This document shows positions 58,826-59,004 of a stretch of 64,000 bases of DNA, in pieces. Where the stretch lies: the IMG/VR virus record IMGVR_UViG_3300045253_000023, positions 32,001 through 96,000 of that record; one strand, given 5' to 3'. Within the stretch, counting starts at the first letter, position 1; each line of letters begins with the position of its first letter. The notes beneath the pieces are model-generated. The model was not told where the DNA came from and did not search any database. It saw only the letters and a program-made list of their open reading frames with translations. Source of the DNA: a virus. A program made the position numbers and the translations under genes.

Positions 58826-59004
58826 GGAATGCCTACAGCCTATATCCGCATTTGAAGCCGAAGGTCGTGTGGTTCGATTCCCACCTGCTCCACAAGAGTG
58901 ATTTGCTCCAGTGTCATTGTCTTTCTCCAATAGTTAGCAAAATCACAGCAGATCACTCTTTTGGGGCAGTAGCTCAGTGGTAGAGCAGCGTAATGCGCAT
59001 TCCG
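58826..59004 (+). ncRNA. Y-RNA-like element H (YrlA-type permuted tRNA domain)
   Basis: GGAATGC/GCATTCC stem, TACAGCC; T arm, closed acceptor, then D arm. Confidence 0.75.

Follow-up and report, generated by a model that had tools for sequence, protein, structure and literature searches.

Introduction

Particles composed of a Ro60 protein and a Y RNA have been described in animals, in some of the bacteria and in a small number of phages, the bacterial Y RNA possessing a tRNA-like part. In bacteria and mycobacteriophages, YrlA is a tRNA mimic which is bound by the protein Rsr and forms part of an Rsr-YrlA-polynucleotide phosphorylase (PNPase) complex; the acceptor stem is longer in some YrlA RNAs, and YrlA of M. 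smegmatis is cleaved by RNase P and acquires CCA in vivo (PMC4201824). The Ro60 protein of Thermus phage phiLo, with two Y-like RNAs (Yrl1 and Yrl2) encoded upstream, forms a ternary complex with the host PNPase (PMC12135203; PDB 9KOP and 9L5Y), while in the Felix O1-type coliphage Bas63 the Ro60-like gp130, whose gene adjoins tRNA genes, is reported in a preprint to be required for countering the Ppl defence system, and the authors of that PhageMaP study guess that Y RNAs may be present among the annotated Bas63 ‘tRNAs’, with no RNA being defined (bioRxiv 10.1101/2024.10.10.617714). The current study concerns element H, a sequence of approximately 185 nucleotides (nt) at positions 58820-59006 (+ strand) of a 64,000 nt stretch of DNA, hereafter referred to as the window, from an uncultured phage (IMG/VR record IMGVR_UViG_3300045253_000023, positions 32,001 to 96,000).

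The genome from which the window derives is complete, being 161.5 kilobases (kb) in length with terminal repeats. The window contains 31 tRNA genes between 43.5 and 58.6 kb, and element H is located directly past the last of these, 66 nt from the ATG of an open reading frame (ORF) of 468 amino acids (aa) (59070-60476, +). This ORF is the putative partner gene of H, and its product is referred to below as the window protein. No promoter or terminator pattern was detected inside or after element H.

When compared with the systems described above, element H shares with the YrlA family (Rfam RF02553) the order T arm, closed acceptor-like stem and D arm, a stem formed by its two ends at the position of the anticodon arm, an intact tRNA elbow, and a location adjacent to, and in the same orientation as, a gene for a protein with a predicted Ro60 fold, this gene being within the approximately 4 kb that is characteristic of YrlA. 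It differs from YrlA in its Rfam score (24.9 bits as against a threshold of 69 bits), in possessing a short stem of 7 base pairs (bp) with a YUACAGC(AA) box rather than a GNCGAA-bearing stem, in a partner with DUF2828/DUF7788 domains that the Pfam TROVE model does not see, and in the 70-nt hairpin on its acceptor. The phiLo locus is similar in that a phage Ro60 ring is encoded with Y-like RNA genes just upstream, and the phiLo structures are the best Foldseek matches of the window protein; however, protein identity is approximately 15%, the Yrl RNAs, which were chosen by means of a CGAA motif, are of stem-bulge-stem form, and neither a permuted tRNA body nor an ACAGC box has been described for them. 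As in Bas63, the Ro60-like gene lies directly beside the phage tRNA array, and gp130 may by its description be likened to the window protein, although counter-defence against Ppl was measured for Bas63 alone.

Based on the comparative analysis presented here, we consider it likely that element H is a Y-RNA-type non-coding partner of the phage Ro60-like protein, in which a terminal stem and box, the handle, would act as docking site and the interior would constitute a tRNA-shaped body.

Results

Element H belongs to a family of handle RNAs

The two ends of element H pair into a 7-bp stem (GGAAUGC, 58826-58832, with GCAUUCC, 58997-59003), the 5′ strand being followed by the unpaired box CUACAGC (58833-58839) and the 3′ strand by a conserved G at 59004. 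H thus displays the features by which a handle is defined, namely an end-joining stem of 7 bp, a YUACAGC box after its 5′ strand and a G after its 3′ strand; the consensus of the box across the family is YUACAGCAA. The stem is preceded by a U-rich lead-in, AGUUUU (58820-58825), which is common to the handle copies at 52105, 54740, 58630 and 58704. The corresponding pattern AGTTTTRG-NN-T-NN-CTACAGC is matched five times in the window, where 0.05 matches are expected, and every copy has, further downstream, a stretch ending in CCUG to which its variable bases are complementary. The box is also conserved in IMG/VR loci, in Mycobacterium phage MsGreen and in E. coli phage wV8.

In a protein-guided fetch, 80 IMG/VR loci were retrieved around homologues of the Ro60-like gene of the window, and these revealed the same arrangement upstream of the gene and on the same strand, with a freely covarying handle stem. 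Eleven elements that enclose a T arm, a closed acceptor and a D arm were picked by hand (alignment A2) and used to build the covariance model R1, while a second, independent set of metagenome loci, from which 50 sequences were aligned, yielded the covariance model R2, which includes no window sequence. Pairing extends to 98% of the cells of A2, with compensatory change in 18 of its 23 pairs (slid controls, 37-45%), figures which are partly circular, as the 11 seeds had been selected for pairing. The independent set returned 97% paired cells and compensatory change in 22/23 pairs, slid controls over both sets amounting to 32-45%. Compensatory changes were recorded for five of the seven columns of the handle helix in A2 and for all seven in A4, the latter alignment, like A3, having been fitted to a model and being partly circular as well.

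Less circular evidence is provided by strand bias, by position relative to the gene and by the test with R2. A search of the window and the fetched loci with R1 produced 165 matches, every one of which (165/165) lies on the strand of the Ro60-like gene, and the same was true of all 64 matches (64/64) in the independent metagenome loci. Many of the elements associated with the closest protein clade stop approximately 14 nt ahead of the ATG of the gene, and in this clade a Shine-Dalgarno sequence is found within a few bases of the 3′ strand of the last handle (UGAUUCU-GAUAAAGGA). When applied to the whole 64-kb window, R2 retrieved element H as its top match (56.4 bits, E = 1.1e-8) over the full length of the model, the insert being treated as a loop insertion of 69 nt.

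Members of the family were also identified in named phages. The RNA adjoins the gene for a ‘Ro-like RNA binding protein’ in Mycobacterium phage MsGreen (80 bits), where it is located downstream of the gene, and it occurs within the tRNA array of the Felix O1-type E. coli phage wV8 (76.6 bits), which encodes a homologue of the window protein approximately 1 kb upstream of the element. The wV8 element (L170:6382-6514, equivalent to NC_012749.1 26804-26936, +) is retained in 252 Felix O1-type records, in most of which it is unannotated. The Rfam YrlA model assigns 39.3 bits to the MsGreen element, which is below its threshold, and misses the wV8 element. The wV8 element underlies a reverse-strand ‘hypothetical protein’, gp048, and this coding sequence call is probably spurious.

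These data solidly place element H in a large family of handle RNAs which carry tRNA-like cargo and are encoded beside Ro60-like genes, the family as a whole being a relative of YrlA outside the curated Rfam family. The initial annotation of H as a YrlA-like permuted tRNA with its closing stem at the anticodon position is borne out by the order of parts, which is kept with compensatory changes in the 11 picked and the 50 independent elements, and is further backed by the predicted Ro60 fold of the neighbouring protein. A literature search found no published description of the handle RNA family, and a search on DUF2828 returned only unrelated papers on plants and tardigrades.

A motif of the GNCGAA type is missing from most members of the family. 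In element H the sequence GCCGAAG (58857-58863), which fits the YrlA motif GNCGAAN0-1G (PMC4201824), is present in the 5′ linker 4 nt before the T arm, where approximately 0.04 occurrences are expected by chance. The motif was rejected as proof of YrlA membership, given that it is located outside the outer stem in H and is not conserved.

The handle may also be compared with the Class I RNAs of Dictyostelium, in which a short terminal stem is accompanied by an 11-nt box after its 5′ strand with T, C, C, A and A fixed at positions 3, 6, 9, 10 and 11 (PMC7919456). By description, these RNAs resemble the handle in the conservation of the first G of the stem, whose partner is the C of a CUGU on the 3′ side, and in that the interior is variable. 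The handle box, written as xxUUACAGCAA, would fit the 11-nt box of Class I RNAs. In contrast to element H, Class I RNAs are eukaryotic and approximately 60 nt long, carry no tRNA-like cargo, and have an RNA recognition motif (RRM) protein as their known binder.

Several further handle RNAs were observed in the window and the fetched loci. In the handle RNA at 52107-52226 (+; R2, 55.6 bits) an entire permuted tRNA is enclosed: the T arm comes first and the 3′ strand of the acceptor with its encoded GCCA second, and past a spacer of 5 nt there follow the 5′ strand of the acceptor, the D arm and an arm resembling an anticodon arm (AUGGG-CUAAUAC-CCCAU, with AAU as ‘anticodon’), the handle being at the position of the variable region. 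The element at 50876-50997 (+; R2, 39.5 bits) has a variant box (UUCUGC), a T arm, a 7-bp acceptor and an 8-nt loop starting with GCCA, and in place of the D arm there are two GC-rich hairpins. In L070:3594-3690 the handle encloses a tRNA core lacking the acceptor stem (Rfam tRNA positions 8-63) and replaces the acceptor, not the anticodon arm. A sub-type found upstream of the Ro60-like gene in four loci (L003, L010, L013 and L015) possesses a T arm joined by approximately 4 nt to a D arm (GUGU-AACGGUA-GCAC) and no acceptor stem.

Architecture of element H

Inside the handle, the parts of element H follow the order of a circularly permuted tRNA, and the halves, handle, T arm, acceptor, insert and D arm that had been read from the sequence in the initial annotation were all confirmed at their positions. 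The 5′ linker (58840-58866) ends in a variable-loop-like AGGUC (58862-58866), of which C48 could pair with G15. It is followed by a T arm (GUG(U)GG / UUCGAUU / CCCAC, 58867-58884; 5 bp with a bulged U at 58870), this arm being supported by the Rfam YrlA and R2 alignments as well as by the predicted fold, and by the 3′ strand of the acceptor (CUGCUCC, 58885-58891), A73 (58892) and then CAA, not CCA. The 70-nt insert (58893-58962) is predicted to form a hairpin on the acceptor and leads to the 5′ strand of the acceptor (GGGGCAG, 58963-58969), in which G3 stands opposite U70. U8, A9 and the D arm (GCUC-AGUGGUA-GAGC) occupy 58970-58986 and are supported by sequence reading and by the Rfam YrlA and R2 alignments; A26 (58987) and the 3′ linker GCGUAAUGC (58988-58996) then connect to the 3′ strand of the handle. 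The acceptor pairs are G1:C72, G2:C71, G3:U70, G4:C69, C5:G68, A6:U67 and G7:C66. The nucleotides required for the elbow (G18 G19, U54 U55 C56, G53:C61 and G15/C48) are in place, as are A14 and A21.

In the minimum-energy fold of 58816-59010 all four helices are formed, namely those of the handle, the T arm, the acceptor with its extension and the D arm (z = -5.5 relative to shuffles), the acceptor with its insert hairpin amounting to -38.8 kcal/mol (z = -8.5). The pairing GAGTGAT/ATCACTC, by which the insert had originally been considered to be closed, does exist, yet it is only part of a longer helix: the ends of the insert form a perfect helix of 14 bp (58894-58907 with 58947-58960) which is stacked on the acceptor. 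An A73-U(-1) pair and a 1x1 mismatch between C74 and a U join the two into a predicted, near-continuous helix of approximately 22 bp, in which U(-3) and U(-4) are the partners of A75 and A76. The bulged U of the T stem, the ACAA after the acceptor and the pairing of A73 with U(-1) were absent from the initial annotation. Within the linkers, the AAUGC of the 3′ linker is complementary to GCAUU at 58848-58852, raising the possibility of a second stem with the box in a bulge, although the minimum-energy fold of H does not include this pairing.

The match of the Rfam YrlA model to H is restricted to model positions 23-87, with T arm, acceptor and D arm aligned. The tmRNA_permuted model (RF04321, threshold 47 bits) scores 17.5 bits and the transfer-messenger RNA (tmRNA) model 9 bits. 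A BLAST search with the insert of H against all fetched loci found no similar sequence. Downstream of H, at approximately 59021-59044 (+), a hairpin (AGGC(C)ACA-auccc g-UGUGCCU, with GUUUUGA after it) was noted which is handle-like without the ACAGC box, and relatives have a minimal handle at that place.

The neighbouring Ro60-like protein

Pfam identifies DUF2828 and DUF7788 in the window protein, together with a faint match to the von Willebrand factor A (vWA) domain, while the Pfam TROVE model gives no match to it; PHROG 850 (‘RNA-binding protein’) also matches. A model of the protein obtained with AlphaFold2 from 33 homologues has a mean predicted local distance difference test (pLDDT) score of 83, and when this model was compared with the PDB using Foldseek the top 13 matches were all Ro60/TROVE proteins, matched over the full length, with template modelling (TM) scores of up to 0.62, including the Ro60 proteins of Thermus phage phiLo, Xenopus and human, and Rsr of Deinococcus. 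A profile of the window protein weakly matches the vWA region of the Thermus phage TROVE protein. The window protein is thus predicted to adopt the Ro60 fold, i.e. a ring of helical repeats with a vWA domain. Homologues are present in 711 phage records, the hosts of which include E. coli, Vibrio, Listeria, Staphylococcus, Campylobacter and Mycobacterium, and it is in mycobacteriophage records that the homologue is labelled ‘Ro-like RNA binding protein’.

The acceptor end

The acceptor of element H (GGGGCAG / CUGCUCC-A) does contain G3:U70 and A73, the alanine-type combination which the initial annotation had reported. That annotation went on to propose that excision of the insert could give a two-piece RNA that can be alanylated, a proposal to which the comparison lends no support, given the sporadic occurrence of G3:U70, the lack of CCA in H, and the enclosure of A73 and the 5′ leader in the predicted 22-bp helix. 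For this comparison, 46 distinct modules of the family with a T arm and a closed acceptor were drawn from alignments A3 and A4 of the fetched loci, while a tally of G:U pairs was based on 31 modules. G3:U70 is present in 9 of the 46; in six of these nine the acceptor is closed off by a sealed loop of 2-6 nt, and a single one of them carries CCA; counts of G:U at the other acceptor positions in the 31 modules range from 0 to 4, which would point to a weak enrichment at position 3. The identity elements of alanyl-tRNA synthetase (AlaRS) are not conserved across related elements. This is illustrated by the orthologous elements L037:2117 (G3:U70) and L026:3488 (A3:U70), which share the handle and 5′ linker and whose acceptor stems are otherwise different.

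N-CCA is encoded exactly after the 7-nt 3′ strand of the acceptor in 12/46 modules, with loops of 7-58 nt, as against an expectation of approximately 0.7, while most of the remaining modules have short sealed loops of 2-9 nt. Where the loop measures at least 10 nt, CCA is present in eight of ten modules, the exceptions being L081:3792 and element H. This distribution suggests that a subclass with encoded CCA may be opened at the acceptor, or may display a CCA mimic. The closest analogue of H, L078:3541-3716, has a bulged T stem, ACCA and a 58-nt hairpin insert, but no G3:U70. CCA is encoded by all tRNAs of the phage with a standard acceptor stem and by its tmRNA, and GCCA by the window handle RNAs at 50876 and 52107. 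No CCA-adding enzyme (PF01743) is encoded in the complete 161.5-kb genome. Given the pairing of A75 with U(-3) and of A76 with U(-4), the sequence of H appears to have been selected for the helix, not for a CCA end.

A permuted, two-piece tmRNA gene of the phage itself was detected by ARAGORN at genome positions 124408-124861, approximately 28.4 kb past the end of the window, with the tag AANDAVFDQSSNVLQFRKAA. In its intervening segment, which contains two hairpins similar to a T arm, the terminal sequences (AAAUGUA / UACAUUU) pair and thereby lengthen the acceptor helix. Element H resembles the acceptor piece of this tmRNA in its T arm and its acceptor. An RNase P RNA-like element (62313-62526, +) is located approximately 3.3 kb downstream of H and directly after a tRNA (62235-62304); the Rfam archaeal RNase P model assigns it 46.6 bits (threshold 84; E = 4e-12 for a short search). 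The possibility that H is a recent copy of a tRNA of the phage was rejected, as tRNA-Ala shares only pairs 1-3 and A73 with it and no tRNA matches both halves. Two small ORFs on the + strand of the tRNA array were noted in passing, at 57375-57821 (similar to PHROG 990, HD-type metal-dependent phosphohydrolase, partial) and at 56077-56586 (similar to PHROG 1040, HslV-family peptidase).

Discussion

The reading that we favour, a Y-RNA-type partner of the Ro60-like protein, is built on an architecture, a conservation with covariation, a strand and gene position, and a neighbouring predicted Ro60 fold that have been set out above. In mechanistic terms, element H would probably be co-transcribed with the tRNA array and the Ro60-like mRNA, and its ends, paired into the 7-bp handle with the unpaired CUACAGC box, would form the dock for the Ro60-like ring. 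The interior has the layout of a tRNA body that is circularly permuted, the handle substituting for the anticodon arm while T arm, acceptor and D arm build an intact elbow, and this tRNA-shaped body would lure or tether exoribonucleases or enzymes that bind tRNA, by analogy with the Rsr-YrlA-PNPase complex (PMC4201824) and the Ro60-Yrl-PNPase complex of the Thermus phage (PMC12135203). The tRNA-like body would recruit a partner, and the RNA may have a role in RNA surveillance or counter-defence. The acceptor, lengthened by the 70-nt hairpin, is most likely kept closed and at most trimmed, while it is possible that H is cut into two pieces. Element H is not a decoding tRNA, and alanylation is unnecessary to explain it; its alanine-type end is real in sequence and probably not used for alanine charging.

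Several observations weigh against this interpretation. The score of element H falls short of the Rfam YrlA threshold, and its handle is unlike the canonical Rsr-binding stem, such that protein binding is inferred from co-occurrence only. H is moreover an atypical member of its own family, the first pair of its handle being G-C, whereas A-U is found in 8/11 seeds, its box being followed by CU where the family has AA, and its acceptor being one of only two with a loop of at least 10 nt and no CCA. In addition, the nearest relatives by protein among IMG/VR, metagenome contigs and GenBank phages show at most 55% identity, and no close relative was found with which the insert and acceptor particular to H could be compared.

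Element H may alternatively be regarded as mainly a cis-acting structured 5′ leader of the Ro60-like mRNA, for instance one in which the protein, bound to the handle near the ribosome-binding site, restricts its own translation, and from which no stable free RNA arises. Its position on the strand of the gene, 66 nt ahead of the ATG and separated from it by no terminator pattern, would accord with this, as would the Shine-Dalgarno sequence within a few bases of the last handle in the closest clade, and the small handle-like hairpin (AGGC(C)ACA...UGUGCCU-G, ~59021-59044) which in the window precedes the Shine-Dalgarno sequence by approximately 13 nt. We nevertheless consider it unlikely as the principal function, given that members of the family lie far from or downstream of the gene (50876, 52107, MsGreen and wV8) and that a translational operator needs no intact tRNA elbow; a leader role is in any case compatible with the Y-RNA reading, and it is likelier in those relatives where the handle abuts the ribosome-binding site. 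It is very unlikely indeed that H is a decaying, no longer functional copy of a CCA-bearing permuted tRNA- or tmRNA-type module. ACAA is a single substitution from ACCA, the T stem is bulged, the handle departs from the consensus at its first pair and after its box, and the T arm and acceptor are reminiscent of the tmRNA of the phage, yet none of the 23 modelled pairs is disrupted, the insert forms a perfect helix of 14 bp, the pairing of A75 and A76 looks selected, the bulged T stem and long insert recur in L078, and the position of H upstream of the gene is the conserved one. In H, as in permuted tmRNA genes including that of the phage itself, the T arm and the 3′ strand of the acceptor precede the 5′ strand (GGGG...), from which they are separated by a segment that lengthens the acceptor helix through the pairing of its ends; H also has G3:U70 and A73 in common with these genes, and it draws weak Rfam matches. 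Those matches are far under the threshold, however, ARAGORN reports no tmRNA at H while recognising the complete permuted gene with its tag frame elsewhere in the genome, and H possesses a true, canonical D arm and a Ro-type handle with no tag reading frame, pseudoknots or CCA, such that identity as a permuted two-piece tmRNA gene is effectively refuted.

The alanine-type acceptor requires more extensive consideration. Minihelices with G3:U70 suffice for charging by AlaRS. According to the two-piece model, the precursor would be opened at the acceptor, by RNase P cleavage before G58963, perhaps after RNase III cuts the long helix, followed by 3′ trimming to A73/C74 and completion by a CCA-adding enzyme of the host; the two pieces, held together by the handle and acceptor stems, would then be charged by AlaRS via G3:U70 and A73. 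G1:C72, G2:C71, G3:U70, G4:C69 and A73 are all found in H, there is a U at position -1, and the 7-bp acceptor stacks on the 5-bp T stem. The over-representation of N-CCA among the family modules points to processing in part of the family, with ACCA and a hairpin insert in the closest analogue of H; the permuted tmRNA of the phage, with its acceptor-extending segment, and the RNase P-like RNA encoded nearby would both be in keeping with a processing route. A precedent for RNase P cleavage and for CCA addition exists in M. smegmatis YrlA (PMC4201824). Set against these points are the ACAA of H, where standard-acceptor tRNAs, the tmRNA and two other handle RNAs encode CCA, the lack of a phage CCA-adding enzyme, the enclosure of leader and 3′ end within the predicted 22-bp helix (A73 and positions 75-76 paired, a 1x1 mismatch at 74), the occurrence of G3:U70 in few modules, mostly with sealed loops, with weak enrichment at position 3, the difference at 3:70 between orthologous elements, and a bulged T stem that would be unfavourable for EF-Tu. 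On balance we regard the two-piece, CCA-completed, alanine-charged RNA as quite improbable. The fuller version, in which H is matured to a CCA-tailed mimic of tRNA-Ala or of the tmRNA domain and is AlaRS-charged while docked on the Ro60-like ring, is to be considered very improbable, and this judgement extends jointly to the maturation steps it would entail, namely cleavage by RNase III and/or RNase P of host or phage, 3′ trimming and CCA addition.

Element H is probably a Y-RNA-type partner of the Ro60-like protein, and it belongs to a much wider family of phage RNAs, which extends to E. coli and mycobacterial phages, is missing from Rfam and is unannotated in GenBank. Members of the family are found in tRNA operons, where a divergent Ro60-like gene is their neighbour, and in a Felix O1-type coliphage the Ro60-like gene is tied to escape from defence. 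Two traits of H are unusual, namely its alanine/tmRNA-type acceptor and the long hairpin located where CCA would be. Although alanylation is a long shot, element H and its CCA-encoding sister elements make the opening and tRNA-like charging of Y RNAs a testable question, and in the improbable event that H is CCA-tailed and charged, it would represent a Y RNA that is aminoacylated and by which a particle for RNA surveillance is connected with AlaRS, EF-Tu or the ribosome.

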